Positions 1,665-34,939 of a DNA stretch of 64,000 nucleotides are shown in pieces. Under the pieces are notes generated by a model. It saw nothing but the letters and a program-made list of their open reading frames with translations. It was not told the DNA's origin and searched no databases. The DNA is taken from positions 1,832-65,831 of the forward strand of contig CALDYQ010000018.1 of the NCBI GenBank assembly GCA_937944385.1, in the 5' to 3' direction. The translations under genes and the position numbers were made by a program. Position 1 is the stretch's first letter; each line of letters starts with the position of its first letter. The stretch is from an uncultured Burkholderiales bacterium. Its GTDB lineage: Bacteria; Pseudomonadota; Gammaproteobacteria; Burkholderiales; Casimicrobiaceae.

Positions 1665-1733
1665 GAGAACGCCCGCTCTTTCTTTGCTGCGCGATCGTCT
1701 TGCGCGCGCTGAGTACGCTCTGCGGGTACTCGC

Positions 1734-2853: not shown

Positions 2854-2946
2854 GAGTGTGATTTTGTAACGGGTCGAGCGGGGATTGCTGAGACTTCACT
2901 ACGCCGATTGCGGTTCCAATGACGCGCGTCAAAACGACGCGACGTT

Positions 2947-5541: not shown

Positions 5542-5602
5542 GGCGATGGGGGTGGGTGGTGCGGTGGCAGGCGGGCAGGCGGCGCCAGGCAAGCTTGGAA
5601 GT

Positions 5603-6991
5603 TTAGTTGGCGGGTGGGGTTGGTCGGTCGCTCGCCACGACCGGGACTTCTCCTCGCGCCAGGCGCAGGCGCAGGGCGTCTCCCGGACGGACGCGCGCCG
5701 CATCGCTCACGACGCCGCCTGCGGCATTGAAGACGACGGCGTAGCCCCGCTCGAGCACGCGATCCGGATCGAGCAGAGCCAGCGCGTCCGCGGCGCGCAT
5801 GAGGCGTTGGCGTGGTCGGTCGCAGACCGTGCGGGCTGCGACGGCCATTCGCGCTTCGAGGCGGGCCAGACGCTCGGCAGCCAGGCGGGTGGCTCCGCCA
5901 TGGGCGACGAGCGCATGCCAGCGGGCATCGAGCCGCGCGTGCCGTTCACGCAAGCGCTCGGTCGCGCGCGCAAGCGCCCGGGCGAGCCGCGTGGCGAGGC
6001 CGAATGTGCGCTCGCGCCACGGTGCAAGTAGCGTTTGCGTCGAGGCGATGCGTGCCGCCGCACGATCGAGACGCTGGGCCAGTTGCTCGAGGCGTCGGCT
6101 CTGGGCGCGGGCGAGTCGTTCGCCGAGCATGGAGACGCGGGCCGCGATCTCCGAGGCATCCGGTGTCGCGAGCAGCGCTGCGGCGCTCGGCGTGGGCGCG
6201 CGCAGGTCTGCGGCGAAGTCGCACAGGGTGAAGTCCGTCTCGTGCCCGACCGCGCTGACGATGGGCAGACGCGAAGCGGCCACTGCACGCACGAGGGCCT
6301 CGTCATTGAACGCCCAGAGATCCTCCAGGCTGCCGCCGCCGCGGCCGATGATGAGCAGATCGCACTCCGCCCGCACGTTGGCCACCTCGACGGCGGCACG
6401 CAGTTCCGCCGGCGCGGCGGCGCCCTGCACCGAGGCGGGATAGAGGATCACCCGGGCGAGCGGCCAGCGGCCCCGGAGCACGCGCAGCATGTCGGCCAGT
6501 GCCGCCGCCTCGCGCGAGGTGATGATGCCGATCGAGCGCGGGAAGGCCGGCAGCGGGCGCTTTCGTGCCTCGTCGAACAGGCCTTCGGCGGTGAGCCGGG
6601 CCTTGAGGCGCAGGAAGGCTTCATACAGCTCGCCCGCACCCACGGCGCGCACCTGCTCGACGATGCATTGCAGCTGGCCGCGCGGCTCGTAGATCGCGAC
6701 CCGCACGCGGCATTCCACGGCCAGGCCATCGGCGAGCGCGAAGGGCACGAGTGCCGCGCGGTTGCGAAAAAGCACGCAGGCGATCTGCGCGCGATCGTCC
6801 TTGAGGTCGAAGTAGGCGTGGCCGGAGGCGGCGCGCTTGAAGCCCGAGATCTCGCCGCGCACCCAGAGGAGCGGGATCGCGCGATCGAGCGCCTGCGTGA
6901 TCCTCGAGAGCAGTTGCGACACGCTCCCAGCGGTCGCACCCGCGGGTGCCGCAGAGGCGCTTGTGGGATCCTCATTGCGTGGGTTTGTCAT
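5603..6991 (-). CDS. xseA: Exodeoxyribonuclease VII large subunit
   Basis: [12 protein letters not shown]-fold, [53 protein letters not shown]. Confidence 0.97.
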
Positions 6992-7178
6992 GGACAGGAT
7001 TCTGGCTCAGTCTTTCGAGGCTCGGAATGTTTCGCCCCTCTTGACACAGGCATGCAGGGCTTTGAAAACGATTCAAACCATTGATGGCAAAGCGATTTTT
7101 CCTGCCGCGGTGCTGGGCAGGACGGCAAAGGCGCAACCAGACGTCCTTTGCGCGGGGTCGAATCAGTTGTTCTCGGGC

Positions 7179-7201
7179 TTATCCACAGGTGCTGTGGACA
7201 A
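7179..7201. promoter_or_regulatory. Inverted pair of DnaA-box-like 9-mers
   Basis: TTATCCACA (7179-7187, perfect consensus) and TGTGGACAA (7193-7201, reverse complement TTGTCCACA, one mismatch), 5 bp apart, in the xseA-glnS divergent intergenic region. Confidence 0.55.
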
Positions 7202-7344
7202 TTCGGGCGCCGCTGGAAGCCTCATGACGACGGGCTTTCGCGCGGTGCCATCAGCGTTTCGCCCGTGCCGACACGATTTATGTGACATCTGTGCGACGGC
7301 TAAAATGCTGCGACTGCACAAGGGCGCGTTTGTCCAGTTTCAGC

Positions 7345-9057
7345 ATGTCCAATGTCAAAGCCGGCACCCACGTCGGCAGCCCGGCCGCGCCTGCGGCTCC
7401 CGCCGTCTCCAACTTCATCCGCCAGATCATCGAGGCCGACCTCGCGAGCGGCAAGCACGGCGGCGCGGTGGTCACGCGCTTCCCGCCAGAGCCGAATGGC
7501 TACCTGCACATCGGGCACGCCAAGTCGATCTGTGTGAATTTCGGGCTGGCCCGCGACTACGGCGGACGCTGCCACCTGCGCTTCGACGACACGAACCCGG
7601 TCAAGGAAGATGTCGAATACGAGCGTTCGATCAAGGAGATGGTCGAATGGCTCGGCTTCTCGTGGGGTGAGCATCTTCACCACGCAAGCGACTACTTCGA
7701 CACGCTGTATGCGTTCGCTGAACACTTCATCGAACGCGGCCTCGCGTATGTCGACAGCCAGAGCGCGGACGAGATGCGTGCCAATCGCGGCACCTTTGAG
7801 AAGCCGGGCGTGGACTCGCCCTTCCGCAACCGGAGCGTCGAAGAGAACCTGCGGCTCTTCCGCGAGATGCGTGATGGCAAGCACCCCGAGGGGGCGCACG
7901 TTCTCCGGCTCAAGATCGACATGGCATCGCCGAACCTCAACCTGCGCGATCCGGCGATCTACCGCATCCGCTTTGCCGAGCACCACCGCACCGGCAATCG
8001 CTGGTGCATCTATCCGCTCTACGACTACACGCACTGCATCAGCGACGCGCTCGAGGGGATCACGCACTCGATCTGCACGCTCGAGTTCGAGGCGCATCGA
8101 CCGCTCTACGACTGGATACTCGCACGGTTGATCGAAAGCGGAAAGCTCAAGCCGCCTGCGCCACAGCAGATCGAGTTCGCGCGTCTGAACGTGAGCTACA
8201 CCGTGATGAGCAAGCGCAAGCTGCTCGAACTGGTCGCAACGGGCGTGGTCTCCGGCTGGGACGATCCGCGCATGATGACCCTGGTCGGCCTGCGTCGGCG
8301 GGGCTTCACGCCGGCATCGATTCGCCTCTTCGCCGAGCGCGCCGGGGTGTCCAAGGCGCATCAGTGGATCGACATGGCCGAACTCGAGCGCGCGCTCCGC
8401 GATGACCTCGATCCGAAGGCGCCTCGCGCGATGGCGGTGACCGACCCGGTGCGCGTCATCATCGAGAACTGGCCCGAGGGGCAAGTCGAGCGCCTGTCAG
8501 CCCCGGTGCATCCGCATGACGAAAGTCGCGGCCGCCGTGAGTTCCTCATCGGGCGCGAGGTATGGATCGAGCGCGACGACTTCCGCCCCGCACCGGAGAA
8601 GGGCTTTTTCCGGCTCGTCCCCGGCGGCGAAGTGCGCCTGCGCTACGGCTACATCATCCGCTGCGAACGCTTCGAGACGGATCAGGCGGGCAAGGTGACG
8701 ACGATCCACGCCACCTACGACCCGGCCACGAAGAGCGGCACGCCCGGGGCGCGCAACGTGAAGGGGGCGATCCACTGGGTGGCGGCGGCCGATGCGCTCC
8801 CAGCGGAATTCCGGCTCTACGATCGACTGTTCCGCGTACCCGATCCGGATGCCGAGGGCGGCGACTACCGTGACCATCTCAATGCGGATTCGCTCAAGGT
8901 GCTTCGGGGCTGGGTGGAGCCGACGCTCAGCGACGCCACTCCGGAGACGAGTTTCCAGTTCGAGCGGCTCGGCTACTTCTGCGCGGATCGGGTCGACTCG
9001 CGTCCTGGCCAGCTCGTGTTCAACAAGGCCGTCGGGCTCAAGGACGGCTGGAAATAG
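7345..9057 (+). CDS. glnS: Glutamine--tRNA ligase
   Basis: TRFPPEPNGYLHIGHAKS (HIGH), RFDDTNP, VMSKR motif, FQFERLGYF. Start set at ATG 7345. Confidence 0.98.
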   Translation: MSNVKAGTHVGSPAAPAAPAVSNFIRQIIEADLASGKHGGAVVTRFPPEPNGYLHIGHAKSICVNFGLARDYGGRCHLRFDDTNPVKEDVEYERSIKEMVEWLGFSWGEHLHHASDYFDTLYAFAEHFIERGLAYVDSQSADEMRANRGTFEKPGVDSPFRNRSVEENLRLFREMRDGKHPEGAHVLRLKIDMASPNLNLRDPAIYRIRFAEHHRTGNRWCIYPLYDYTHCISDALEGITHSICTLEFEAHRPLYDWILARLIESGKLKPPAPQQIEFARLNVSYTVMSKRKLLELVATGVVSGWDDPRMMTLVGLRRRGFTPASIRLFAERAGVSKAHQWIDMAELERALRDDLDPKAPRAMAVTDPVRVIIENWPEGQVERLSAPVHPHDESRGRREFLIGREVWIERDDFRPAPEKGFFRLVPGGEVRLRYGYIIRCERFETDQAGKVTTIHATYDPATKSGTPGARNVKGAIHWVAAADALPAEFRLYDRLFRVPDPDAEGGDYRDHLNADSLKVLRGWVEPTLSDATPETSFQFERLGYFCADRVDSRPGQLVFNKAVGLKDGWK

Positions 9058-11268: not shown

Positions 11269-11468
11269 CCATCGAAGCCAAACTCCTCGAAATCCTCGTC
11301 TGCCCGGTGACCAAGGGTCCGCTCGTGTATGACCGCGAGCGCAACGAGCTGCTTTCGCGCTCGGCGCGTCTCGCCTACCCGATCCGCGATGGCATTCCGG
11401 TGATGCTCGAAGAAGAGGCGCGACCGCTCACGGACGAAGAGATCGAGCGGCTCGCAGCCAAGCCGTGA
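11265..11468 (+). CDS. ycaR: Trm112-family protein (YcaR-like)
   Basis: [20 protein letters not shown]...[13 protein letters not shown]; ATG overlaps the lpxK stop; canonical position between lpxK and kdsB. Confidence 0.93.
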
Positions 11469-12295
11469 GCGACCTGTCGACTCACCGGGCAGAAGGCGTG
11501 CTTCACGTCGAGCAAGCGATCGCCTTCGATGTCGTGATCCCGGCGCGCTATGGCTCGAGTCGGCTTCCGGGAAAGCCTCTGCTCGACCTCGGGGGGCAGC
11601 CTGTGGTCGTGCGCGTAGCCGAGCAGGCGCGGCGCTCCGCTGCCGCGCGGGTCATCGTGGCAACCGACGACCCCCGCATCGAGGCGGCCTGCGTTGGTCA
11701 TGGGATCGATGTCGTGCGCACCGCCGCCACGCACGAGACCGGCACGGATCGTCTGGCCGAGGTCGCGGCCCGGCTGGATCTCCCTGCCGACCGGGTGGTG
11801 GTCAATGTGCAGGGCGACGAGCCCTTTCTTCCCCCCGAGATGATCGATCGGGTGGCGCGGCTTTTGGTCGCTCACCCGCAGGCGGCGCTCGCGACCCTGT
11901 GCCACCCGATTCATGCCGTGGCCGAGATCGCGAACCCGAATGTGGTCAAGGTCGTACTCTCGGGGCAGGGCGAGGCGATCTACTTCAGCCGCGCGCCGAT
12001 CCCTTGGGCGCGGGATGCGTGGCGCGATGGCATCGCCACGCTTCCGGCCGATCTGCCGATCCACCGCCACATCGGTCTGTATGCCTACCGGGCGCACTTC
12101 CTGCGGGCGTTTCCCGGACTGGCACGCCCGGCGATCGAGCGCCACGAATCGCTCGAGCAACTGCGGGCGCTCTGGAACGGCTACCGCATCGTCTGCGATG
12201 TGATCGACGCCCCGTTGCCGCCGGGCATCGACACCCGCGAGGATTACACCGCGGCGCAGGCGCGCTTCACTTCGCAGGCTCTTCGAGCACCTTGA
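11465..12295 (+). CDS. kdsB: 3-deoxy-manno-octulosonate cytidylyltransferase
   Basis: [49 protein letters not shown]. Confidence 0.97.
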
Positions 12296-12668
12296 CCCGC
12301 GTGACGTAGTACCGCGTGTCACCGAAGCACGACGTGGGCAGACCGACCTTCTCCTCGTAATGGAGCGCCACGCGGCGACCGGCCAGGCGGTTGATCTCGG
12401 AGGCGACCGCATCATCCCAGACCGTGAACGGGAACTTTTCCGGCAGACCGCCGGGCAGCACGATCATGTTCATTTCGCCCTCCCAGGTCTTGCAGATCCA
12501 GCCTTTCTTGGACAGCTTCTGGACGATGCCCACACGCTCGCCGCTGGAATAGCTCCAGTTCCACATGAGGAATCCATAGCCGATCGCGAGCAGGATCAGC
12601 ACGATCGGAAACACGACGAAGACGTAGCCGCCTTGGAGGTGTCCATGGCGCGGTGAGTAATGATTCAT
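12267..12668 (-). CDS. Conserved hypothetical single-pass membrane protein (YS-G-R-G...KKGW-CKTWEGE family)
   Basis: One N-terminal TM helix then WSYSSGERVGIVQKLSKKGWICKTWEGE; coding-like codon bias. Start set at ATG 12668. Confidence 0.75.
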   Translation of the reverse strand: MNHYSPRHGHLQGGYVFVVFPIVLILLAIGYGFLMWNWSYSSGERVGIVQKLSKKGWICKTWEGEMNMIVLPGGLPEKFPFTVWDDAVASEINRLAGRRVALHYEEKVGLPTSCFGDTRYYVTRVKVLEEPAK

Positions 12669-14451: not shown

Positions 14452-15921
14452 TCAGGGGTTGACCCGCGAGGCAGCGCGATCGGGAGCCGTGCGATCACTC
14501 AACGCCAGGGCCGCATCCAGGGACGACACGGGTTTCCACTCAAGCAACCACCCGGGCTCGCGGGCGTAGCGGGCATCGACCGCGAGACCCGCGACCGCGA
14601 TCACGTGCTCGTCGTCGCAGATCAGTGGCCAGTGCGCACGCTGCCAAGGCGGGATGGCGTGGGTCTGAAATACGTTCTTGAGCGCCACATGGCCGCTTCG
14701 TTCGTTGAGCCGGATACGGTCGCCCGGGTGACGAAGTCGCAGCCGCCAGCCTGCCCGTCCTTGCGTCGATGGCGGCGTGAGAAGCATTGGCCGAGGAGTT
14801 CGCGCCTCCCGCTCGACGAGCAAGACCCGAAGTTCCCCGTGCGTTGTGCGCCACGTCCCCGGCGCCGAGATGTGGGAGGGCAGGACGCTCTCTGCGCAGT
14901 CGGCGCCGCCGTTTGGTGGCGTAAGCGATGTTGCGATCGAGGCCCGACCGCGAAACGTGCAGAGCTCGAGCGGCCTTTCGTCATCAAGCGACGGGAGCGA
15001 TAGCCGAAGCCCGCTGCCCACGTGCTCGAGCTGTCGCGCCATTTCTTCGACCGCATGCCAGCCCGGGTTGGCTGCACCGGCATCGACGAGCCAGCGCCGG
15101 AGCGCGTTTCGCCGTCGGGAGGGTGAGAGACGTTGCCAGGCGTCGAGCACGAGCGCCCCTTCGGCGAGGCAGCAGCCCAGATCGAGTTGAGCGAGTTCCT
15201 CGATCAGCCGTGCCGCTTCTACCTGTTGTCGTGCGGCGCTCACGATCTGCGCCACGCCGTCGGGAAAGCAAGCGTGAAGCGCTGGCCAGATGTGCTCGCG
15301 CAAGCACGCTCGTGCAAGGCGCGTATCGGCATTGCTCGGGTCATTCACTCCGTCGATCGCATGGGCCTCGGCATAGCGTTTGATGGCCTTGCGGTCGAGC
15401 GCGAGCAGTGGGCGTTCGAGCGCAATCCTGCCCAGCATGCGCCGCGCTGGCATACCGGAGAGTGCGCGTGGCCCCCCGCCGCGGAGCAGTTGTAGGAGCA
15501 CGGTCTCCGCCTGATCGTTCGCGTGATGAGCCAGCACGATGCAGTCGGTCGCCAGTCGTCCGAATGAGGCGTAACGGGCCTGTCGAGCCGCTGCCTCGAC
15601 GCCGCGGCCAGAGTCGACGTCGACCTTGACCCGCTCGGTCGAGCAGGGCACGCCGAGCCCAGCACAGAGCTGCTCGACGTGTCCGAGCCAGGCATCCGCC
15701 TCGGGCAGCAGGCCATGATGGACATGGTGCGCGGCGAGTCTCAGGTCGGGGCGCATCCCCACGCGTGCTCTCGCGAGCGCGTGCAGGAGGACGCTCGAAT
15801 CGAGGCCGCCCGAGCAGCCGACCGTGATGTGTTCACCGTGGGGGCGGCCGCGAATCCACGCGGCGACGGTCAGTGCGACCGAGCAGCCGTCCCCGCGCTC
15901 AGGCTTCGGCGAAGGCGCCAT
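14452..15921 (-). CDS. tilS: tRNA(Ile)-lysidine synthetase
   Basis: [15 protein letters not shown]-loop, [25 protein letters not shown]; directly downstream of accA. Confidence 0.94.
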
Positions 15922-16864
15922 ACCGCGCCAGCCGCTCGCGGCGGTTTTTGAGCCGCTCGGTGGCGGTCATCGCCGTGAGGCGTTCGAGCTCGCCCATCAG
16001 GGCCTCCCGCAGATTGCCCATCGCGGCGACCGGATCGCGGTGCGCACCTCCGCAGGGCTCGGCGACCACGGCATCGATGAGCCCGAGCGCCTTGAGTTTC
16101 TGCGCGGTGATGCCGAGGCTCTCGGCGGCCTCCGGAGCGCGCTCGGCGCTCTTCCACAGGATCGATGCGCACCCTTCAGGTGAAATGACCGAGTAGGTCG
16201 CGTACTGGAGCATCAGCGTCACATCGCCGACCGCGAGCGCGAGCGCGCCGCCCGAGCCGCCTTCGCCGATCACCGTGGCGAGGATCGGCACCTTGAACTG
16301 CGCCATCTCGAAGAGGTTGCGGCCGATCGCTTCCGACTGCCCCCGCTCCTCGGCGCCGACGCCCGGGTAGGCACCCGGCGTGTCGATGAAGGTGAAGATC
16401 GGCAGACCGAACTTCTCGGCGAGGCGCATGAGCCGGAGTGCCTTACGGTAGCCCTCGGGGCGCGGCATGCCCCAGTTGCGCAGGACCTTCTCCTTGGTGT
16501 CGCGACCCTTCTGGTGGCCGATCACCATGCAGTTTCGGCCCTCGAAGCGTGCGAGCCCGCCGACGATGGCCGGGTCATCGGCGAAACAGCGGTCACCGTG
16601 CAGTTCGCGGAACTCCGTGAACAGCCCCTGCAGGTAATCGAGCGTGTAGGGGCGCTGCGGGTGCCGTGCCACCTGGGCGATCTGCCATGGCGTCAACTTG
16701 GCGTAGATCGAGCGGTTGAGGTCGGTGAGCTTCTTCCGGAGCTTCTTGATTTCGTCGGAGACATCGAGCTGATCGACACCCTCGTGCAGCGCTTCCAGCT
16801 CGTCGATGCGTGCCTGCAGCTCGGCGAGCGGCTGCTCGAAATCGAGGTAGGTTTGTTTGGGCAT
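15899..16864 (-). CDS. accA: Acetyl-CoA carboxylase carboxyltransferase alpha subunit
   Basis: [55 protein letters not shown]. Confidence 0.98.
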
Positions 16865-16908: not shown

Positions 16909-17280
16909 TCAGGGGTGCTCGGCGTCCGATCGCTCGGACGACGGCGGCACCCTGACGGGGCGTTCGCCCGTCTCGGGCAGCGGTGCGAAGCGGGCGACGA
17001 GCATCATGAGCCCGGCGAAGATCATGAGCAGAGGAACGATCAGACGCGAGCGCCAGCCCAATTCGACGTAGCCGTACGCCGCCACGCCGAAGGCCGTGAG
17101 GAGCGGCGCGGTGACCAGGCTCTTGCGGGTGAGCCCGTCGAGCGCGAAGACCGCGCCACCGGCGACGACGAAGGCGGCTGCGATGAGCGCATCCCACTCG
17201 GGCAGCCAGCCCAGGTTCCAGGCGGAAAGTAGCAGGCCACCGGCAATTGAGGTGATGGGAACGGTGGCGTCGCGAAGCAA
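16909..17280 (-). CDS. Small hypothetical integral membrane protein (about 4 TM helices)
   Basis: The C-terminal 123 aa of ORF 16909..17703 are hydrophobic and coding-like ([19 protein letters not shown]...[18 protein letters not shown]). Start placed at TTG 17280 by inference. Confidence 0.65.
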
Positions 17281-17380
17281 CCTGCGATCTTCCGTTTTCC
17301 CTGAAACAATCGCCAGGGCGTTGCTGTTTTCCGCCCGTGTCGCCTGCGTTCCGATACCTCTTGAAGTGAAGTTCGAACCT

Positions 17381-18967
17381 ATGCCTGAACCTTCCCCTGA
17401 TGATTCAGCGCGCGTGTCGCGGCGCGACGCGCTGGGCACGCTCGTCGGCGGCTGGCCTGTGATTGCCGTGCTGCCGTCCGGGGCGGCGACGGCTACACCG
17501 CTGGCCAATACTGCTGCCGCGAGTGAGCGGCTCGCCAAGGCACCGCGGGCGCGCGGTCGAGCCTCGTTTGCCAAATGTCTGCCACACGACGACCGTGGCG
17601 ACGCGCCTGCGGAGGCACTCGATGCCCTCGAAGCGGCGACGGTCTCGATGCGCCCTGAGGACTGGGAGCGCCTGCCGACGCGCGGCGTGATCCGGCTGGC
17701 CAATCCTTGGGCGGGATACCTCTGGGATTCCCCGCTGCACAGCGACCCGCTTGCAGCTGCCGTCGAGCCTTTGCCGCCGCCACCGGCGCTCGCTTCCGAG
17801 GAACTGGCCGAGGAGATGCTCGAGTGCTACTGGGCGGCGCTCATCCGGGATGTTCCATTCGCCGACTACGAACGCTCGACGCTCGTCGCTGCCGCCGTCT
17901 CCGAGTTACGAAAAACCCGGCGCTTTGCCGAAGTATCGCCCGAGCGACTGCTACGCGGCCCGGTCGTGCGCGCGTGGCGGGGTCGGTATCTCTCGCAGCT
18001 GCTCTGGATGCCTGTGCCGTATGGGGCACAGCTCATCTGGCAGACCTACCGCGTGCCGTTTCGCGGCGTGGATTTCATGGTCACCTGGGAAGACTATCTC
18101 AAGGTCATCCGGGGCGAGTGGCCACCGGGGATCAAGAACCTTTACTCGGACACCTTCTACCTGCGTAGCGGGCGTGATGTGGCCTGCTACACGCAGATGG
18201 ATCTCGCCACCCAGGCGTTCGTCAATGCCGCGGCGATCCTCTCCTACAACCAGCATGGGCGACGGGACAATCTCGCGCCGACGCATCCCTACAAGGCGAG
18301 CCCGTCGATGGAAGGCTTCGTCACTTATGGTCCAGCGTATGCGATCAACAGCCTTGGGACGATTTCTGACATCGTGCTGCGCGCGACCTGGCACGAGAAA
18401 TGGATGCGCCATCGCGCGCTTCGGCCCGAGGAGTACGGCGCGCTTGTCGAGCGCACGCGGCGCGGCGAAAAGCTCGGCCTACCTCCCTGGCTGCTCGAGA
18501 CGGAGGCGGTCAAGCGAACGGTTGCTCGGCAGGGCAATGCGCTCTTCTCGCAAGTCTTCCCCGAGGGCTGCCCAACACACCCGGCTTATCCCGCGGGCCA
18601 TGCCGCGATCGCCGGCGCGTGTGTGACCGTCTTGAAAGCGCTCTTCGACGAGAACCAGCCGATCCGCTTCCCGATTCAGCCCACGCGCGACGGCCGCGAC
18701 TGGGAAGCGCTCGACCGCGATCAGCCGGTGCCCACGGTGGGCACCGAACTCGACAAGCTCGCGATGAACATCGCCTTTGGCCGCAACTTCGCTGGTGTGC
18801 ATTTCTGGGCGGATTCGTGGTGGGGGCTCGTGCTCGGCGAGCGGGTGGCGATCGCGTGGCTGCGTGAGCAATTGCGGACGAGCATCGAACGCCGCTTCGG
18901 TCGGCTCGCAGGATTCGAGTTCAGTGCCTTCGACGGACGCAAGATACGCATCGGTGCCGATTCGTAG
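17381..18967 (+). CDS. Vanadium-dependent haloperoxidase-like protein (PAP2/haloperoxidase superfamily) with Tat signal
   Basis: Three vanadate/phosphate-binding motifs: [31 protein letters not shown]; [13 protein letters not shown]; N-terminal SRRDALG twin-arginine motif. Start set at ATG 17381. Confidence 0.85.
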
Positions 18968-18976
18968 AATCGCGGC

Positions 18977-19525
18977 ATGGAGCACCGGGGGAATAACTAC
19001 GGCGGTCAAGGTGGCACCGGTGGTGGCGCAGTCATCGGCGTGGTCATGGGCTCATCCTCCGACTGGGAGGTCATGAAGCACGCCACTGAGATCCTCAAGC
19101 GCTTCGACGTGCCTTTCGAAGCCAAGGTCGTCTCGGCGCACCGGACGCCGGACGACATGTTCGCCTACGCCGAAGCCGCACAGGACCGCGGGCTCAAGGC
19201 GATCATCGCGGGCGCCGGCGGGGCGGCTCACTTGCCGGGGATGCTTGCAGCCAAGACGCTCGTGCCGGTACTCGGGGTGCCGATTCCGTCGAAGTACCTG
19301 CGCGGCGAGGACTCCCTGCTCTCGATCGTGCAGATGCCCAAGGGCATTCCGGTGGCCACCTTCGCGATCGGTGAAGCGGGTGCGGCCAATGCCGCGCTCT
19401 TCGCGGTCGCGATGCTCGGCATCTCGAACAAGGGCTGCATGCAGCTGCTTGACTCCTTCCGTGATGAGCAGACCGCAATGGCGCGCGCGATGATCGTGCC
19501 GCCGGTGATCGCGGACTCCCAGTAA
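18977..19525 (+). CDS. purE: N5-carboxyaminoimidazole ribonucleotide mutase
   Basis: [41 protein letters not shown]. Confidence 0.98.
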
Positions 19526-19534
19526 GCGCTTGCA

Positions 19535-20692
19535 GTGAACGCACAGACGCCGCTTGCCCCCGGGAGCTGGCTCGGCTGCCTAGGGGGCGGCCAGCTGGGT
19601 CGTATGTTCGTGCATGCAGCGCAGCGGCTCGGCTATCACGTCTGCGTGCTCGACCCGGATGGGGCGGGCCCGGCTGCACAGGCGGCGGATGACACGATCA
19701 TTGCGGCCTACGACGACGGCCACGCGCTCGACCAGCTGGCCGCCCGCGTGGCCGCGGTGACCACCGAGTTCGAGAACGTCCCCGCCGCATCGCTCGAGCG
19801 TCTCGCTGCGCGGCTGCCTGTGCGTCCGGGCGCTTCGGCCGTGGCGATCGCGCAGGACCGTCGTCGGGAGAAGCGCTTTTTCGCTGCACGCGGGCTGCCG
19901 GTGGGTGCCTTCGCAGTGATCGAGACCGAAGCCGATTTCGCCGCGCTCGATGCAGGGCTCTTCCCAGGGATTTTGAAGACTGCCACGCTGGGCTACGACG
20001 GCAAGGGGCAGGCTCACGTGGCTTCGGTTGAGGAGGTGCGCGCCGCCTGGGTCGCTTTCGGCCGTAGTCCGTGCGTGCTCGAAGCCCGCATGGTCTTCGA
20101 CTGCGAAATTTCCGTGCTCGCCGCGCGTGGAGCCGACGGTGACTGTCGCGTCTGGCCCGTGCAGGAGAACATCCACGCCGGCGGCATCCTCGCCCGAACG
20201 ATCGTTCCGGCACGCATCCCGCCGGCCGTGGCCGAGGCGGCGAAAACGGCAGTGGAGCGGCTCATCGCTGCGCTCGATTACGTCGGCGTGCTCGCGGTTG
20301 AGCTCTTTGTCGTCGGCGGGCAGGTGTTTCTCAATGAGATCGCGCCGCGGCCCCACAACAGCGGGCACTACACGATCGAGGCGTGCCAGACCTCGCAGTT
20401 TGAACAGCAACTCCGGGTGCTCGGTGGGTTGCCGCTCGGCGACCCATCCCTCATCCGACCGGCGGTCATGGTCAACCTGCTTGGCGACGTCTGGTTCGAT
20501 GCGGCCACACCGATCGAGCCCGACTGGTCGCGCCTGCTCGCTCTGCCGGGCGCGCATCTGCACCTCTACGGCAAGGCCGAGCCGCGGCGCGGCCGCAAGA
20601 TGGGGCATGTCACCTGCACGGCCGAGACGCTCGAAGAGGCGCTTGCCACCGCGGCCGAGGTCGAGCGTGTGCTGCGTATCGGTGGGCGCTAG
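19535..20692 (+). CDS. purK: N5-carboxyaminoimidazole ribonucleotide synthase
   Basis: GGGQLGRM, TTEFENVP, GYDGKGQ, NEIAPRPHNSGH, YGKAEPRRGRKMGH. Confidence 0.97.
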   Translation: MNAQTPLAPGSWLGCLGGGQLGRMFVHAAQRLGYHVCVLDPDGAGPAAQAADDTIIAAYDDGHALDQLAARVAAVTTEFENVPAASLERLAARLPVRPGASAVAIAQDRRREKRFFAARGLPVGAFAVIETEADFAALDAGLFPGILKTATLGYDGKGQAHVASVEEVRAAWVAFGRSPCVLEARMVFDCEISVLAARGADGDCRVWPVQENIHAGGILARTIVPARIPPAVAEAAKTAVERLIAALDYVGVLAVELFVVGGQVFLNEIAPRPHNSGHYTIEACQTSQFEQQLRVLGGLPLGDPSLIRPAVMVNLLGDVWFDAATPIEPDWSRLLALPGAHLHLYGKAEPRRGRKMGHVTCTAETLEEALATAAEVERVLRIGGR

Positions 20693-21233: not shown

Positions 21234-22163
21234 TCATGTTTGCTTTGGTTTCGCTTGAAGGCGCGAGCGATCCTGCGTGCGCGCGACCGATGAGGCGAGC
21301 GCGACGAAGGCTTCGAGGTAAGCAAGGCCGCGGTCGGCTCGGCGCAAGCCGAGATGAATCTGCTTGATGATGCCGCGTTCGCCAAGACGCAGGCATCTGA
21401 GCTCGGTCCGTTGACGTGTGCCGCTCACGAGCCAGCGCGGCAGCGCCGTGACCGCGCGCCCGCTTGCGACCCACTCGAGGAGCACTTCGGTGTCTTCGAC
21501 CGTGCGGTGCCGCCGCGGCAGAACGCCTGCGGGCTGGAGGAAATGGGTGAAGATATCGAGCCGTTCCCGCGGCACGGGGTAGGTGAGTAACTCTTCGCTC
21601 GCCAGATCGATTGGCAGCACCCGCCGACGGGATGCGAGGGGGTGGGCGCTTGCGACCACGAGCATGTGCTCGTAGTCGAACACATCGATGAACTCGAGTT
21701 GCGCGTGAACGATCGGGTCGGGCGTGATGAGCACGTCGATCTCGCCGGCCAACAGCGCGGCAATGCCGCCAAACTGAAAGCGCTGCCGGATGTCGAGCTC
21801 GACCCGAGGCCAGGCCGCAATGAACGGACGCACCAGCGGCTTGAGCCACTGGTAGCAGGGATGACACTCGATGCCGATGCGCAGCAACCCGGCATGGCCC
21901 TCGGCGATCGAGGCGAGGCGCTCCTCGGCCTGTTCGAGCTGGGGCAGGACGCGCTCAGCGAGGGCGAGCAGTTGGCATCCTGCCGCGGTGGGTGTGAGCC
22001 GTCGACCTTCGCGCGACCAAATGGCCGTCCGGAGTCGGTCCTCGAGCCGCGACATGGTGTGACTGAGCGCCGATTGGGTCAAGCAAAGCACTTCGGCCGC
22101 GGCAGTGAGCGTGCCGCGACGCGCAACTTCCCGAACGATCTCGAGATGAATTCGTTCTATCAT
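21234..22163 (-). CDS. metR: LysR-family regulator MetR
   Basis: MIERIHLEIV HTH, TQSALSH, LRIGIECHPCYQWL, LLTYPVPRERLDIF; divergent from metE. Confidence 0.92.
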   Translation of the reverse strand: MIERIHLEIVREVARRGTLTAAAEVLCLTQSALSHTMSRLEDRLRTAIWSREGRRLTPTAAGCQLLALAERVLPQLEQAEERLASIAEGHAGLLRIGIECHPCYQWLKPLVRPFIAAWPRVELDIRQRFQFGGIAALLAGEIDVLITPDPIVHAQLEFIDVFDYEHMLVVASAHPLASRRRVLPIDLASEELLTYPVPRERLDIFTHFLQPAGVLPRRHRTVEDTEVLLEWVASGRAVTALPRWLVSGTRQRTELRCLRLGERGIIKQIHLGLRRADRGLAYLEAFVALASSVARTQDRSRLQAKPKQT

Positions 22164-22258: not shown

Positions 22259-24580
22259 ATGATTCGTATTCATTCCCTCGGCTACCCCCGCATCGGCCCG
22301 AAACGTGAGCTCAAGTTCGCGCTCGAAGGCTACTGGTCGGGCTCCATAACGCGCAGTGAGCTGTTGCGCTGTGCAGCCGATTTGCGCGCGCGGCACTGGC
22401 GCGACCAAAGCGCTCTCGACTGGGTTCCGGTGGGTGATTTTTCGCTCTACGACTCCATGCTCGACATGTCCGTCACGTTGGGTGTCTGGCCGGCGCGGGT
22501 TGCGGCTACCTCGCGCGGGGATCGCTTTGATGATTACTTCCGTGCAGCGCGTGGCCGCAGCACGCCCGCGAGCGAGGCGCCGCCAGTGGCAGCGCTCGAG
22601 ATGACCAAATGGTTCGACACCAACTACCACTACCTTGTGCCCGAACTCGACCGTCGCACGGTCTTTCGGCTCGATGACCAGCGCCTGCGCGAGCAATGGT
22701 CAGAGGCGTTCATCCAGTCGGTTGCAGCCAAGCCGGTGCTCATCGGCCCGATCACCTGGCTGCGCCTGGCCAAGATGCGCGACGGTGGAGATCCGCTCGA
22801 ACTGCTCGATGCGCTGCTCGAGGTGTATGCCGAGCTTCTGCGCCGACTTGGCCAGTGGGGCGCGAGCTGGGTGCAGATGGACGAACCTGCGCTCGTTCTC
22901 GATCTGTCGCCCGCGTGGTTGGCAGCCGTGGCGCGTGCCTACCGGCTGCTCGGCCACGTGGGCCCTCGGTTGCTCGTTGCGACCTATTTCGGGGACCTTG
23001 GCGAGGCAGAGACCCTCGTGACCGAGCTGCCGGTGGCCGGCTGGCATTTCGATCTCACCCGTGGCGGCAACGATTCGCTCGCACTTGCGCGGTCGATCAA
23101 GCGTGCCGACCCAGAACGTGTGCTGTCGTTGGGCATCATCGATGGCCGCAACATTTGGCGTGCAGACCTCGATCGCTGTCTCGACCTGCTCGAGCCGGTG
23201 GCGGCCGAGCTGGGCGAGCGACTGTGGCTTGCGCCTTCGTGTTCGCTTCTGCATGTGCCCTATGAGGCCGCATCCGAAACCCGGCTCGCGCCGCACGTTC
23301 GTCACATGCTTGCTTTCGCGCAAGAGAAACTCGGCGAGCTGGTCACGCTTCGGCGGGCGCTGGGCGAGGGGAGAATGAGCGTTGCCGAGGAGCTCGAATC
23401 AGCGCGCGCCGCCCGTCAGGCATGGCTGAATTCGCCCGATGTGCGGCGAGAGGACGTGCGCAGAGCGCTTGCGGCCTGGGACGAGGGGAAAGCTTCGCGC
23501 CAGAGTCCTCACGCCATTCGAGCGGACAAGCAGCGCCGACGCCTGGGGCTTCCGCTGCTGCCGACGACGACGATTGGCTCGTTCCCGCAGACACAAACCA
23601 TTCGGAAAATCCGTCGCGAGCACCGCGAAGGCGCGCTCAGCACCGAGGCGTACGAGGCGGCGATGCGTGAGGAGATCGCGCGTTGCGTAGCCGAGCAGGA
23701 ATCGATCGGCCTCGATGTGCTGGTGCATGGCGAGCCCGAGCGCGCCGACATGGTCGAGTACTTCGCCGGGCTGCTCTCTGGCTATGCCTGCACCGAGAAC
23801 GGTTGGGTGCAATCCTATGGATCTCGGTGTGTCAAGCCACCCATCCTCTACGGCGACGTCGAACGCGTCAAACCGATGACCATCGCGTGGGCACGCTACG
23901 CCCAGTCTCTCACCCAGCGGCCAGTCAAGGGCATGCTGACTGGGCCGGTGACCATGCTGAACTGGTCATTCGTGCGTGATGACCAGGCGCGGGAAGTGAG
24001 TTGTCGCCAGCTGGCGCTTGCGCTTCGAGCCGAGGTCTGTGACCTCGAAGCCGCGGGAATCGGCGTCATTCAGATCGACGAGCCCGCATTTCGCGAAGGC
24101 TTGCCGCTTCGAACCGCGGCGCAGGCCGACTATTTGCGCTGGGCGGTGGCGTGCTTTCGGATGGCGGCCAACGGCGTGCGGGACGAGACGCAGATTCACA
24201 CCCACATGTGTTATTCGGAGTTCAACGACATCATCGAATGGATTGCTGCACTCGATGCCGATGTGATCACGATCGAGACCGCGCGCTCGGCGATGGACTT
24301 GCTCGATGCCTTCGAGCGCTTCGATTACCCAAACGAAATCGGTCCGGGTGTCTATGACGTGCACTCGCCTGTGGTGCCCGAGGTCGGACGCATGGTGAAG
24401 CTGCTCGAACGAGCGGGTCAGCGCCTTCCGTGGTCGCGGCTCTGGGTCAACCCCGACTGCGGTTTGAAGACCCGGGGCTGGTCCGAGGTGCGCGCAGCGC
24501 TCGCCAACATGGTGGCAGCGGCGCGGGAGTTGCGTAAGCAGCTCGAGACCCCGCTGCCAGTGGCCGGTGTCAGACGTTGA
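22259..24580 (+). CDS. metE: Cobalamin-independent methionine synthase
   Basis: [46 protein letters not shown] and NPDCGLKTR (Zn ligands). Confidence 0.98.
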
Positions 24581-25722: not shown

Positions 25723-26307
25723 ATGAACGTGCTCTACCTCCACGGCTTCCGCTCGTCGCCGCAGTCGATGAAGGCCAAACTGCTGCGTGAGCGCTTCGCA
25801 AAGACGCCGCATCGCTTCGTCTGTCCGCAGTTGCCCGCGCGTCCCGCCGCAGCGATCACGCTCGCTTCGGAACTGATCGAAGACCGCGACGACCCGGCGC
25901 GCGACTGGGCGCTCGTGGGCTCTTCGCTCGGCGGTTATTACGCGACCCATCTCGCCGAGCGCTACGGCTGTCGCGCAGCACTACTCAATCCGGCCATCGT
26001 GCCGATGCTCGATCTGTCCGCCTACGTGGGCAAGCAGACGATGTTCCACAGTGACGCGCCGTTCGTTTGGCGAGAGGAATACCTCAACGAGCTGGCCGAA
26101 CTATCAGTCGAGCGCATCACCCGCCCCGAGCGTTATCTGCTGATCGCAGCGAAGGGCGACGAGGTGCTCGACTGGCGGCAGATGGTGGCGCACTACCCGG
26201 GCGCGCGGCAGATCGTGCTCGAAGGCGGCGATCACGCGCTCAGCCTGTTTACCGATTACGTCGAGGTGGTCGCGTCGTTCTGTACCGGGGGCACTGTAGC
26301 CGGCTGA
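25723..26307 (+). CDS. YqiA/YcfP-family alpha/beta hydrolase (esterase)
   Basis: [18 protein letters not shown] nucleophile elbow, GDEVLD, GGDHAL. Confidence 0.9.
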
Positions 26308-27977
26308 GTCGCGTCATCCGGGGCAAGCACGACGCGGTTGCGGCCCTGCGCCTTTGCGGCGTACAGCGCCCGGTCGGCGCGCGCAAAGAGCGTTTCGAGA
26401 TCGGTGGGAGCCGTGGCGAAGGCGATGCCGATGCTCGTCGTCACGCGCAGGGCGGGGGCGAGCGCGGTCCAGTCCGTGTCGATGGCGCGGCGGATGCGCT
26501 CGGCGACCTCGATGGCCGCCTCGAGCGCGACCTCTTCGGCGAGCAGCACGAATTCTTCGCCGCCCCATCGGCCTGCACAGTCCGTATTGCTACGACAGTG
26601 CTGTTTGAGGAGTTGAGCGAACCGTTCGAGCACACGGTCGCCAACGGTGTGGCCGTAGCGGTCGTTGATCGCCTTGAAATGGTCGATGTCGAGCGCGAGG
26701 AGGGCAACCCTGCGGCGGGTAGCTGCGTGGTGCAGAAAAAACGTCTCGATCCCCCGACGGTTGGCGAGCCCAGTGAGCGGATCGGTGACTGCAAGCTGCG
26801 TCAACGAGCGCTTTTCGGCGTCGAGCAGTTCGCGCTCGACGCGGCTTGCCTCGAGCACCCGTTCGTAGTGCAGCCGCTGACAGCGGCGGAGCACCTCTCC
26901 GGTGCGCAGCGCCTGCTCGAGCGCCCGGGCACGTTTGAGCCACTTGAGCGCGGCGGCCGTATCCCCGCTCGCTTCCAAACACTCAGCGAGCGCGAGGTAG
27001 GCGTCCCGCTCGACGGGCCGGAGGCCGTGCGACCGGGCAAGGTGTAGCGACATCATCGCGCAGCGGATGGCCTCCGGCGAGTCGTCCGCAGCGAGGTGCG
27101 CACGCGCAAGCACGCAGAGCGCTTGACCTTCGCTGCGCGGTGCAGGCAGCGCACGAAAAATCGTGATCGCACGGCAGGCAGCATTCACTGCCTCCGACAC
27201 TCGTCCATCGAGGGTCTCGATTCGGGCCAGCTCGATCAGGCAGAGGCCTTCGATACGTCGCCGACCCGCGCGGAGTGCGATGGCATAGGCCTGCTCGATC
27301 TCCTCGCGCGCCCGCGTGAGCCACGGCGATGCGCCCAGTGGGGACGGCGGTGACGCGGCTGCCGCGTCCACCGAGGTGGCGTCGGCAGCATCCGTGTCGA
27401 ACACTGAGGTGGCGCGCGCCCTCTCTTCGCGGGCGATCGACACCTGGGCTAGACGATACAGCGGATGGGCAAGGGCGCTTTCCTGGCCCGAAACCCGCGC
27501 GAGCTCGACCGACTCGCGCAGCAGACTCTCCGCCTGGTCGAAATCCTCGGCATAGCAGATCGCAGTGCCCAGGCTACGCAACAAACGGGAACGCACGAGC
27601 GGAGTGTCCTGTCTCGCCAAAACGCTGAGCCCATCCAAGGCAGATTCGACCGCCTCATCGAAGGCGCCTAGGTCGAGACTGACTGCCGACAGTTGATGCG
27701 CGACATTGGCATAGCCGACCAGATCGCCTTGACTGGTGAACAGACCGGCGGCTTGTTGGAGCGAATCGCGCGCCTCGGTGAATCGCCCTGAGATGCGTTC
27801 GAAGGCGCCGCGCAGCAGCAAGAGTCGGGCCTCGAGCGCGGTGTCCCCTTCTGTCTGGGCCTTGGGCAAAAGCGCGTGGAGTGCAATGAGTCCTTCCGCC
27901 GCATGGCCAGCGTGGGCGAGCGCCTCGAGCCCAGCGACCAGATCGTTTGCTGCAGGCGTGCTGGGGGAGACCTTCAT
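26256..27977 (-). CDS. Diguanylate cyclase with N-terminal TPR-like helical repeats
   Basis: TDPLTGLANRR, DIDHFKAINDRYGHTVGD, RWGGEEF, ADRALYAAKAQGRN; N-terminal 400 aa of TPR-like helices with no TM segment. Confidence 0.92.
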   Translation of the reverse strand: MKVSPSTPAANDLVAGLEALAHAGHAAEGLIALHALLPKAQTEGDTALEARLLLLRGAFERISGRFTEARDSLQQAAGLFTSQGDLVGYANVAHQLSAVSLDLGAFDEAVESALDGLSVLARQDTPLVRSRLLRSLGTAICYAEDFDQAESLLRESVELARVSGQESALAHPLYRLAQVSIAREERARATSVFDTDAADATSVDAAAASPPSPLGASPWLTRAREEIEQAYAIALRAGRRRIEGLCLIELARIETLDGRVSEAVNAACRAITIFRALPAPRSEGQALCVLARAHLAADDSPEAIRCAMMSLHLARSHGLRPVERDAYLALAECLEASGDTAAALKWLKRARALEQALRTGEVLRRCQRLHYERVLEASRVERELLDAEKRSLTQLAVTDPLTGLANRRGIETFFLHHAATRRRVALLALDIDHFKAINDRYGHTVGDRVLERFAQLLKQHCRSNTDCAGRWGGEEFVLLAEEVALEAAIEVAERIRRAIDTDWTALAPALRVTTSIGIAFATAPTDLETLFARADRALYAAKAQGRNRVVLAPDDATQPATVPPVQNDATTST

Positions 27978-29677
27978 GCCGCGCTCGCGATCCATCGGGC
28001 CGCCTTTTCGGCAATGGCAAGGGTCGGGCTCGCGGTGTTGCCGCTCGTGATCGTGGGCATGACGCCCGCATCGACCACACGCAGACCCGCCACACCGATC
28101 ACGTGCAGATGCGGATCGACCACGGTCTCGGGATCGTCCGCGCGCCCCATGCGCGTCGTTCCCACCGGGTGGAAGATGGTCGTCCCGATGTCGCCTGCGG
28201 CGCGGACGAGCTCATCGTCGCCACGGAGATGCGCACCCGGCCGAACCTCCTCCGGCGCGAAGGGCGCAAGCGCCGGCTGCGTGACGATGCGGCGCGTGAG
28301 CCGAAGGCTGTCCACCGCCACGCGCCGGTCCTCCTCGGTGGCGAGGTAGTTGGGCTGGATCGCCGGCGCAGCCTCGGGATCGGGCGAGACGATATGCACC
28401 GAGCCGCGGCTCGTCGGATTCAGGTTGCAGACGCTCGCGGTGAAGGCGTCGAACGGCTCGAGCGGCTCGCCAAACGCCGGCAGCGACAACGGCTGCACGT
28501 GGTATTCGATGTTCGGATGCGGCTGCTCGGGGCTACTTCGGGTGAAGGCGCCGAGCTGGCTCGGGGCCATGGCCATCGGCCCGCGACGATGGAGCAGGTA
28601 TTCGAGGCCGATTGCGAGCTTGCCGAGCGCGGTGGCCGCCCGGGTGTTGAGCGTGCGCGTGCCGCGGACGCGCCAGACGGCACGCAGCTGCAAGTGGTCC
28701 TGCAGGTTCTCTCCGACGCCGGGCCGATCCGCCACGGGCGTGATGCCGAGTTGCATCAGCCGATCGGCGGCCCCGATCCCCGAGCGCTCGAGGATCTGCA
28801 CGCTGCCGATCGCACCGGCGGCGAGGATCACCTCCCGCGCCGCGGCGATCGTGACGCGCTCATGGCGTCCCGCGGAACTGCGTCGGAGCACGACACCGCT
28901 CACGCGCGGCGGCTGGCAGCCGTCGGACGGTGTGATCTGCAGGCGTTCGACGAGACCATCGAGCCAAACGGTGAGATTGGGTCGCCCGACCGCTCCACGT
29001 AGAAACGCCTTGCTCGCATTCCAGCGCACCCCCGCGCGCTGGTTGACCTCGAAGTAGGCCACGCCTTCGTTGTCGCCGCCATTGAAGTCCTCGGTCGGCG
29101 GAATGCCGGCCTCGATCGCGGCTGCGCGGAAGGCCTCGAGGATCGGCCAGTGGAGGCGCTGCCGCTCCACACGCCACTCGCCCGTACTGCCGAGTCGGAA
29201 ATGCCCATGCAGCGCGGCAAACGCCGGATCGTCCGCACGGTCGCCCGCGGCATCGAGCCGCCAGTGCTGCTCATGGGCCCGAAACTCGGACAGCATGTTC
29301 GTCCAGCGCCAGGCATCGTCGCCGGTGAGCTCGGCCCAACGGTCGTAATCCCGCGCCTGGCCGCGCATGTAGATCATGCCGTTGATGCTCGAGGAACCGC
29401 CGAGCGTGCGCCCGCGCGGGTAGCGCAGGCGGCGACCGTTCAGGCCGGGCACGGACTCGGTCTGGAAACACCAGTCGCTGCGCGGATTGCCGATGCAGTA
29501 GAGGTATCCGACGGGGATGTGAATCCACGGATGGCTGTCACGGCCCCCGGCTTCGATCAGGAGCACCCGCCGGTTCGGGTCGCGTGACAGACGATTGGCG
29601 AGCAGGCAGCCTGCGGTGCCACCACCGATCACGATCCAGTCGAAGGCAAGCGTTTCCTGATCTGGAGTGCCATTCAT
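27974..29677 (-). CDS. GMC-family (choline dehydrogenase-like) FAD oxidoreductase
   Basis: GGGTAG dinucleotide-binding motif, PRGRTLGGSSSINGMIYMRG, GENLQDH, TIFHPVGT, SGNT. Confidence 0.93.
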   Translation of the reverse strand: MNGTPDQETLAFDWIVIGGGTAGCLLANRLSRDPNRRVLLIEAGGRDSHPWIHIPVGYLYCIGNPRSDWCFQTESVPGLNGRRLRYPRGRTLGGSSSINGMIYMRGQARDYDRWAELTGDDAWRWTNMLSEFRAHEQHWRLDAAGDRADDPAFAALHGHFRLGSTGEWRVERQRLHWPILEAFRAAAIEAGIPPTEDFNGGDNEGVAYFEVNQRAGVRWNASKAFLRGAVGRPNLTVWLDGLVERLQITPSDGCQPPRVSGVVLRRSSAGRHERVTIAAAREVILAAGAIGSVQILERSGIGAADRLMQLGITPVADRPGVGENLQDHLQLRAVWRVRGTRTLNTRAATALGKLAIGLEYLLHRRGPMAMAPSQLGAFTRSSPEQPHPNIEYHVQPLSLPAFGEPLEPFDAFTASVCNLNPTSRGSVHIVSPDPEAAPAIQPNYLATEEDRRVAVDSLRLTRRIVTQPALAPFAPEEVRPGAHLRGDDELVRAAGDIGTTIFHPVGTTRMGRADDPETVVDPHLHVIGVAGLRVVDAGVMPTITSGNTASPTLAIAEKAARWIASAA

Positions 29678-30543
29678 GGACGCCAATTGTCCACCGCCTT
29701 GCGGCAGATTGTCACCCGGGGCAAGCCAGCGAGATCACGACGGCCCTCGAGCTCGACGAGTCGGGCTGCGGCGAAGATCGCCTGCACGGCTGGGCCCTGG
29801 TCATGACCGTGCTCGACGATGAGGTGACCGCCGGGTGCGAGATGGTCCGCAACCGCCTGGGCCAGCACCCGGTAGGCGGTCAGGCCGTCGGCCCGGTCGG
29901 TGAGCGCGACCCACGGCTCGAAGCGCAGATCGCCTTCGACGAGATGCGGGTCCCCTTGGGCGATGTAGGGCGGATTGCTCACGATCAGGTCGAACAGAGG
30001 CTCACCGGCCAGGGCTGCAAGCCAGTCGCTCTTGAGAAAGCGCACGCCCGTAGCGCCATTTGCGCCGAGCGCATGCGCGTTTCGCTCTGCGAGTGCCAGT
30101 GCATCCTCCGAGATGTCGACGGCCGTGACCTCGAGCCCCGGGCGTTCGAGCGCAAGCGTGATCGCGATCGCGCCCGTGCCGGTGCCCACGTCGAGCACAC
30201 GGGCGTGCCGACCCAGCGGAAGTCGCTCGAGCGCGGCTTCGACCACGTGCTCCGTCTCCGGCCGTGGAATCAGGGCGGCGGGGGTGCACAGGAAGTCCCG
30301 CCCCCAGAACTCGCGATGCCCGATCAGATAGGCGATCGGTTCACCCGCGCGGCGGCGGGCCACGGCGAGTTCGAAGCGGTCGCGGGCCTCGGCGGGCACC
30401 AAGTCCCAGTCGTGCGCGAGCAGCCAGGCGTGGGCATGTGCTGGGCGTGGATGCCCCAGGGCATGGGCGAGGAGCAGGCGGATTTCGAGGGTAGGCAGGC
30501 GGCGGTCGGCGAGCAGCGCTGCGACCCTGATTTCGCCCCTCAC
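29674..30543 (-). CDS. prmC: Release factor glutamine methyltransferase
   Basis: RRRAGEPIAYLIG, ALIPRPETE, LDVGTGTGAIA, VSNPPY. Start set at GTG 30543. Confidence 0.95.
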   Translation of the reverse strand: MRGEIRVAALLADRRLPTLEIRLLLAHALGHPRPAHAHAWLLAHDWDLVPAEARDRFELAVARRRAGEPIAYLIGHREFWGRDFLCTPAALIPRPETEHVVEAALERLPLGRHARVLDVGTGTGAIAITLALERPGLEVTAVDISEDALALAERNAHALGANGATGVRFLKSDWLAALAGEPLFDLIVSNPPYIAQGDPHLVEGDLRFEPWVALTDRADGLTAYRVLAQAVADHLAPGGHLIVEHGHDQGPAVQAIFAAARLVELEGRRDLAGLPRVTICRKAVDNWRP

Positions 30544-34850: not shown

Positions 34851-34939
34851 TGGCCCAATTTATCAGTAACGTTTCCCCCATCGATCGCTTCGGGATCCCT
34901 GTCAGGGCGAACTCCACCCACACATCCCCCCAAGCCACG

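Follow-up and report, generated by a model that had tools for sequence, protein, structure and literature searches.

A vanadium haloperoxidase homologue of the bromoperoxidase type with a predicted Tat signal in an uncultured Burkholderiales bacterium

A contig stretch of 64,000 nucleotides from an uncultured Burkholderiales bacterium of the Casimicrobiaceae (GenBank assembly GCA_937944385.1, contig CALDYQ010000018.1, positions 1,832 to 65,831 of the forward strand; hereafter the window) encodes a protein of 528 amino acids that is a vanadium haloperoxidase homologue of the bromoperoxidase (VBPO) type, as documented by its fold, its domain architecture and its conserved active site. The best explanation for this protein (the query in the following) is a VBPO-type vanadium-dependent haloperoxidase that performs an exported (periplasmic), hydrogen peroxide (H2O2)-dependent halide oxidation, a function that we consider likely. 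The gene is an intact member of a large, already annotated bacterial vanadium haloperoxidase family (see Table 1 for the coordinates of all features). Its coding sequence runs on the plus strand from the ATG at 17381 to the stop codon at 18965-18967 (open reading frame (ORF) call and translation); the open frame extends back to position 17096, with 17381 being the first ATG 5' of the conserved part. Because the extension (17096-17381) is not conserved in the relatives and would overlap a conserved gene on the opposite strand, the start at 17381 is regarded as correct; the same boundaries, already given in the first-pass annotation that had been made from the sequence, agree with the ORF and its translation.

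The assignment to the VBPO type is based on sequence and structure comparisons. In a phmmer search of all solved structures, the vanadium bromoperoxidase I of Ascophyllum nodosum (V-BPO I; 1qi9) was matched over nearly the full length of both proteins (E 8.3e-54; residues 61-526 of the query, 52-533 of the enzyme) with about 30-33% identity, followed by the bromoperoxidases of Corallina, the second one of A. nodosum and that of Acaryochloris marina (E 1e-43 to 1e-35); besides bromoperoxidases, this single-sequence search of the solved structures returned no match below E 1. With a profile built from 52 relatives, all solved VBPOs were recovered at E values of 5.7e-115 to 1.5e-97 (best match 1qi9), while the iodoperoxidase of Zobellia (VIPO; 9.5e-5) and the chloroperoxidase of Curvularia inaequalis (VCPO; 0.08) were marginal. 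The AlphaFold (AF2) model constructed on the alignment of the 52 relatives was of high confidence (pLDDT 90.8, pTM 0.89; only residues 1-40 disordered) and revealed the two-helical-bundle VBPO fold in the architecture of approximately 500 amino acids that is typical of these enzymes; in the Foldseek comparison it reached a TMq of 0.81 to 1qi9 and of 0.73-0.81 to the other VBPOs, compared with about 0.2 to NapH1, NapH3 and XhnO11 (3w36, 8cxl, 9l8x), to the Zobellia VIPO and to the C. inaequalis VCPO. The proposal of the first-pass annotation that the gene codes for a vanadium haloperoxidase homologue of the algal/cyanobacterial type is thus supported by phmmer, profile and Foldseek searches as well as by the neighbor-joining (NJ) tree described below.

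For the description of the active site, the 1qi9 numbering was reconstructed from the printed phmmer alignment, and residue conservation was counted in an alignment of 116 full-length homologues. The vanadate-bonded His, the Lys, the two Arg and the Gly ligands as well as the acid-base His of the A. nodosum enzyme all have their counterparts in the query: D274, W337, K340, R348, H400, H407, R468 and H474 are invariant in 116/116 homologues, as is P349, and G406 is a Gly in 114 of them. The His of the PTHP motif, which had been interpreted as the residue typical of bromoperoxidases, is indeed their extra His, as the invariant H400 aligns with His411 of the A. nodosum enzyme; according to the literature, this position corresponds to Phe397 of the fungal chloroperoxidase. 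W337 is the Trp three residues ahead of the catalytic Lys, a position that influences halide preference: A. nodosum and the fungal enzymes possess Trp, the red-algal and Acaryochloris enzymes Arg, and a change of that Arg alters chlorination (PMC11871015).

One ligand deviates: The canonical Ser that donates a hydrogen bond to vanadate (Ser416 in A. nodosum, Ser402 in C. inaequalis) is replaced by Ala405 in the query (PAGH), with the homologues carrying Ser (63), Ala (49) or Gly (4) at this position. All three vanadate motifs listed in the first-pass annotation (K-x7-R, PTHPxYPxGH and GRxxxGVH) are present (coordinates in Table 1), and, judged from the alignment to the A. nodosum enzyme and the invariant catalytic columns, their presence is far beyond chance; as the x of "PxGH" is the position of the vanadate-bonding Ser, the pattern had masked the substituted ligand and the set is complete except for this residue. 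The exchange is no bar to membership in the VBPO type: The same Ser-to-Ala change is reported for the active iodoperoxidase of the kelp Laminaria digitata, a brown-algal-type enzyme, in which a preference for iodide has been attributed to it as a proposal (Pacios and Galvez 2010, summarised in PMC4227530; matched to the query by the description in that paper). The distribution of the two states is patchy, with Ala in the subclade of the query (72-100% identity), Ser in the Burkholderiales sister group (51-57%) and mostly Ala in the group of 39-44% identity. Several switches between Ser and Ala have thus taken place inside the bacterial family, so that this residue may not decide halide specificity.

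A second deviation was observed directly behind the vanadate-bonded His, where residues 474-478 (18800-18814) read H-F-W-A-D in the subclade of the query versus H-W-R-S-D in 107/116 relatives; the Arg476-to-Trp change is restricted to the closest five sequences and two others. That both Ser405-to-Ala and Arg476-to-Trp lie near the cofactor motifs and are confined to this subclade or overrepresented in it would be expected if the protein were a decayed or repurposed homologue with a structural or other role and without vanadate chemistry, comparable to the isomerase NapH3. Such a fate is, however, very improbable in view of the invariance of all other ligands, the clear purifying selection and the occurrence of Ala405 in 49/116 homologues and in the kelp enzyme.

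The active-site motifs are partly shared with the class A acid phosphatases of the PAP2 superfamily (e.g. Escherichia blattae, 1d2t), which have KxxxxxxRP, (S/A)GH, (S/G)RxxxxxHxxxD and a core helical bundle in common with the query and are likewise exported enzymes. A periplasmic phosphatase that uses its PAP2-type site on phosphate esters, e.g. for phosphate scavenging, was therefore weighed against haloperoxidase function. The only model above threshold in the Pfam scan was PAP2 (PF01569; 30.5 bits versus a cut-off of 27.2; residues 391-494), a superfamily model that also covers haloperoxidases; several databases designate relatives as "phosphatase PAP2 family protein", and apo-chloroperoxidase is able to catalyse dephosphorylation (title of PDB 3bb0). 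The acid phosphatases are, in contrast to the query, single-bundle proteins of about 230 amino acids; none of them was among the profile matches to solved structures up to E 10, and their TMq values (0.12-0.19) were far below the 0.81 obtained with 1qi9, whereas the query has the full two-bundle VBPO architecture. In addition, His400 and Trp337 are situated on the halide/peroxide side, outside the phosphatase motifs, and are yet invariant in the homologues. Clustering with the PAP2 phosphatases, the outcome that the first-pass annotation had named as speaking against its assignment, occurred neither in the profile search nor in the Foldseek comparison, and a phosphatase function is considered improbable. 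The NCBIfam scan of the query gave no match, even at E 1, and precomputed annotations of the query and its relatives additionally list PF22778 (VCPO_2nd); as a result of these diverging scans, automatic pipelines name the members of the family inconsistently (haloperoxidase, PAP2 phosphatase, phospholipid phosphatase or hypothetical protein).

Among the characterised enzymes, the A. nodosum V-BPO I resembles the query most closely in its full-length homology, its fold, its D-W-K-R-H(extra)-G-H-R-H site and in possessing Trp instead of Arg three residues before the catalytic Lys; the query differs from it by its bacterial origin, its Tat signal peptide, the Ala in place of Ser416 and HFWAD instead of HYRFD starting with the vanadate-bonded His. 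The enzymes of A. marina (5lpc) and Corallina (1qhb/1up8) are of the same family and fold (profile E 1e-100 to 1e-107, TMq 0.73-0.79) and have kept the extra His; unlike the query, the cyanobacterial and red-algal VBPOs possess Arg at the Trp337 position, comprise about 600-660 amino acids and are dodecameric.

At its N-terminus, the query carries a predicted signal of the twin-arginine translocation (Tat) type that is conserved across the family, a prediction that is well supported. It consists of an n-region, the motif S13-R-R-D-A-L-G19, an uncharged h-region (hydropathy analysis revealed an uncharged run of 32 residues behind SRRDALG) and a candidate cleavage site A36-T-A38, so that cleavage would occur at about residue 38; the low pLDDT of residues 1-40 in the AF2 model is as expected of a signal peptide. 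The twin-arginine signal SRRDALG recognised in the first-pass annotation (R14-R15) is retained as an RR pair in 111-112/116 homologues (approximately 96%; consensus [SAT]-R-R-x-[LF]-L; counted in alignment columns), and the N-termini of 107/116 passed a Tat-like pattern applied to the first 90 residues. A search of the window with an Escherichia coli TatA query detected no tatA-like gene, a result without weight, as the position of tat genes in a genome is not fixed. Outside the immediate relatives, the copies of cultured Bacillota (Peribacillus, Metabacillus, Filobacillus and others; six loci) are without twin-arginine signal and look cytoplasmic, and a copy of the haloarchaeon Halovenus amylolytica has the motif SRRQFLG.

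The export signal and the lack of a biosynthetic cluster around the gene are also features that would be compatible with a site-selective halogenase acting on one substrate without release of free hypohalous acid, e.g. on the alkyl-quinolone signals of neighbours in the manner of the AQ-VHPOs or of NapH/Mcl-like enzymes. The structure of the query is that of the algal VBPOs and not of the NapH/Mcl-type selective vanadium haloperoxidases (VHPOs), as the solved selective enzymes NapH1, NapH3 and XhnO11 gave the low TMq values mentioned above and the gene is surrounded by housekeeping genes; no substrate pathway was found beside it by annotation of the neighbours, which hint at no substrate. The AQ-VHPO sequences were outside this comparison; we take these enzymes to be a NapH-type group, to whose solved members the query shows a TMq of only about 0.2. 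According to the literature, secreted and cluster-free bacterial AQ-VHPOs (sources: Microbulbifer HZ11, Enhygromyxa salina, the betaproteobacterium Rubrivivax albus and others) are active bromoperoxidases that brominate exogenous quinolones; their export signals are mostly of the Sec and in some cases of the Tat type, and signal peptides are mainly a feature of the bacterial members of the family, published cyanobacterial and red-algal VBPOs being without (PMC11312541). The AQ-VHPOs thus resemble the query in being bacterial, exported, located outside biosynthetic clusters and found in Proteobacteria; in view of the structural differences, a selective halogenation by the query is nevertheless judged unlikely, and haloperoxidase function of the VBPO type is preferred.

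Homologues of the query are widespread. Among the scored candidates of the protein database, 1824 were relatives at E 1e-5; for some of them, NCBI and JGI already use the names "vanadium-dependent haloperoxidase" or "phosphatase PAP2 family protein". In a library of representatives at 50% identity 730 clusters were matched at E 1e-30 and 1572 at 1e-10. A relative is encoded in at least 498 species-level genomes, among them genomes of Burkholderiales (including Casimicrobium), Acidobacteriota, Chloroflexota, Myxococcota and Gammaproteobacteria as well as of cultured Bacillaceae and a Streptomyces; the rarity in bacteria that was implied by the first-pass annotation has therefore to be abandoned, as the family is common and already named by NCBI. 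The betaproteobacterial setting was correctly recognised, with metagenome-assembled genomes of Burkholderiales being the sources of the nearest relatives. In the NJ tree, the query was placed in a Burkholderiales subclade within the bacterial radiation, with the A. nodosum V-BPO I as sister and Corallina as outgroup (two characterised anchors only, taken from the printed alignments; tree without support values). This placement agrees with a 2025 paper, according to which the closest neighbours of the brown-algal haloperoxidases are bacterial enzymes, in particular from Acidobacteriota and Bacillota (PMC11765636). The source organism itself is present in runs labelled as marine, hot-spring and soil metagenomes.

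From the chemistry of the family, the following mechanism can be proposed. The precursor would fold in the cytoplasm, be exported via the Tat pathway and be cut at about residue 38, and the mature enzyme would work in the periplasm or beyond. Vanadate would form its bond with His474 and be kept in place by Lys340, Arg348, Arg468, the backbone of Gly406 and, in homologues where it offers a ligand, residue 405; H2O2 would convert it to peroxovanadate, with His407 in acid-base function and Lys340 polarising the peroxide. The halide would then attack and leave as hypohalous acid or an equivalent, a product that would halogenate nearby organic nucleophiles or react with a second H2O2 to O2. Given that the protein is presumably exported and that no partner genes accompany it, its products would take effect in the periplasm or in the surroundings of the cell; candidate roles are the removal of environmental H2O2 and an attack on competitors, or on the signals that they emit, by released HOBr/HOI. 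The preferred halide, which is not readable from sequence, would most likely be bromide and/or iodide, because Trp337 and His400 match the A. nodosum V-BPO I and Ala405 matches the kelp iodoperoxidase.

Several observations weigh against this function. In the literature, no assay was found for any member of the algal-type bacterial clade; apo-haloperoxidases show phosphatase activity (3bb0 was among the Foldseek matches), and active-site residues of the query are common to PAP2 phosphatases. Ala405 removes one hydrogen bond to vanadate. The Tat motif of the query is weak compared with the consensus, having Ala where 97/116 homologues have Leu/Phe and no Lys, and many of the non-marine habitats in which relatives occur offer little bromide and iodide. 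Furthermore, the only sign of transcription, a contig of 212 nt that matches 17808-18019 with one mismatch (depth 2.4; 2023 run labelled as single organism, the RNA label being a guess), has no weight as evidence for expression.

The genomic surroundings of the haloperoxidase gene consist of housekeeping genes, in line with the first-pass annotation, which had described it as cluster-free. It had also been placed between accA and purE: purE is indeed the next gene 3', its ORF beginning 9 nt past the haloperoxidase stop with the same spacing in the relatives; accA, however, is separated by an ORF for a membrane protein of 123 amino acids that has several hydrophobic segments and no Pfam match and is divergently oriented at a gap of 100 bp. 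Conservation of this ORF (57-84% identity) is limited to the subclade of the query (relatives' loci L001 and L081-L084); next to the haloperoxidase genes of more distant relatives, no counterpart was detected. Since no terminator-like site is present between the haloperoxidase gene and purE, it is probably co-transcribed with purEK, as judged by position only; functionally, purEK are unrelated to it. A promoter scan returned no sigma-70-like site and carries no weight. In the region 18965-19060, the purE ORF possesses a Gly-rich N-terminal extension ahead of the usual VIGVVMGS start of AIR carboxylases, and the real purE start may lie further downstream.

Table 1. Position of the haloperoxidase gene, its functional sites and its direct neighbours in the window (residue equivalents refer to the A. 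nodosum V-BPO I).
Feature	Position	Strand	Basis
accA (acetyl-CoA carboxylase carboxyltransferase alpha), starts MPKQTYL	15899..16864	-	Pfam ACCA, E 8.5e-144
Hypothetical membrane protein, 123 aa, TTG start	16909..17280	-	Hydropathy; start aligns with ATG of relatives
VBPO-type vanadium-dependent haloperoxidase homologue, coding sequence, 528 aa	17381..18967	+	phmmer, profile, AF2, Foldseek
Predicted Tat signal peptide, residues 1-38	17381..17494	+	Sequence, hydropathy, family conservation, low pLDDT
Twin-arginine codons R14, R15	17420..17425	+	Sequence and alignment
D274 = D278 (active-site Asp)	18200..18202	+	Alignment; invariant column
Motif 1: W337 = W338, K340 = K341, R348 = R349	18389..18430	+	Alignment
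Motif 2: H400 = H411, A405 = S416, G406 = G417, H407 = H418	18563..18604	+	Alignment
Motif 3: R468 = R480, H474 = H486; then D478	18779..18814	+	Alignment
purE	18977-19525	+	Pfam AIRC
purK	19535-20692	+	Pfam ATP-grasp, PurK_C

The order accA, membrane ORF, haloperoxidase gene and purEK was also found in the relative of 84% identity (L001) and on three contigs of that of 81%; in the relative of 72%, the order is the same up to the haloperoxidase gene, without purE downstream. There is no G+C shift across the gene, and neither flanking long direct or inverted repeats nor marks of mobile elements were detected around it (only 14-24-nt matches at chance level). The designation as "inserted" is accordingly not supported. 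In the Burkholderiales relatives of 53-57% identity (L002, L003, L004, L006; approximately positions 1-7400), the copy is situated directly after what we take, from the translations, to be serC-pheA-tyrA-aroA on the same strand, and in two of these loci genes read as an iron(III)-type ABC permease and ATPase follow downstream. The housekeeping genes that surround the haloperoxidase gene thus differ between Burkholderiales lineages, and no conserved functional partner gene was found across the relatives' loci.

Further upstream in the window, beyond accA, a TctC-family binding protein and tilS are encoded, all on the minus strand, and a small EamA-type transporter gene is located downstream of purK. 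It is followed by what are presumably metR (21234-22163, minus strand) and metE (22259-24580, plus strand), named from their translations. The further genes annotated in the window are also core-chromosomal (alaS, glnS, exbBD, lpxK, ychF, pyrF, a release factor and ispG), the names of alaS, glnS, lpxK, ychF, pyrF and ispG having been assigned by Pfam domains. A GMC-family FAD oxidoreductase (27974-29686, minus strand), a class that often produces H2O2, is encoded about 9 kb from the haloperoxidase gene; it adjoins a TPR-GGDEF protein (26256-27995), and in the relatives it was not observed to be linked to the haloperoxidase gene. The region 34694-42525 (plus strand) codes for a bacterial alpha-2-macroglobulin (1881 amino acids) followed by a PbpC-type penicillin-binding protein, a known periplasmic defence pair. 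Three sizeable ORFs (6035-7084, plus strand; 11375-12415, minus strand; 32814-34280, plus strand) have a coding-like third-position G+C and no Pfam match at E 1e-4.

In conclusion, the query is an uncharacterised new member of a known family, and public databases already annotate it as a matter of routine; earlier publications have described relatives of the brown-algal enzymes in bacteria as well as secreted, cluster-free bacterial VHPOs. It is a sound annotation without surprise that leaves the current understanding unchanged. The family, to which one well-supported member is added here, is frequently encoded in genomes but has received little study except in algae, cyanobacteria, Streptomyces and a few bacteria of marine origin. 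Beyond this, it can be speculated that the VBPO-type enzymes with Tat signal of Gram-negatives form a large clade beside the brown-algal enzymes that serve as periplasmic halide oxidases in soils, fresh waters, hot springs and sludge, with the Ala405 subclade being selective for iodide; we hold this combined proposal to be doubtful. If it were true, the subclade would represent a vanadium route of bacterial iodide oxidation or organo-iodine formation apart from the known multicopper iodide oxidases. The repeated Ser/Ala toggling within one clade constitutes a natural experiment on the determinants of halide preference, and, if the enzyme is active, the exported clade would be a source of new biocatalysts and could, in non-marine habitats, play a part in the natural halogenation of organic matter and in turning over H2O2, bromide and iodide.

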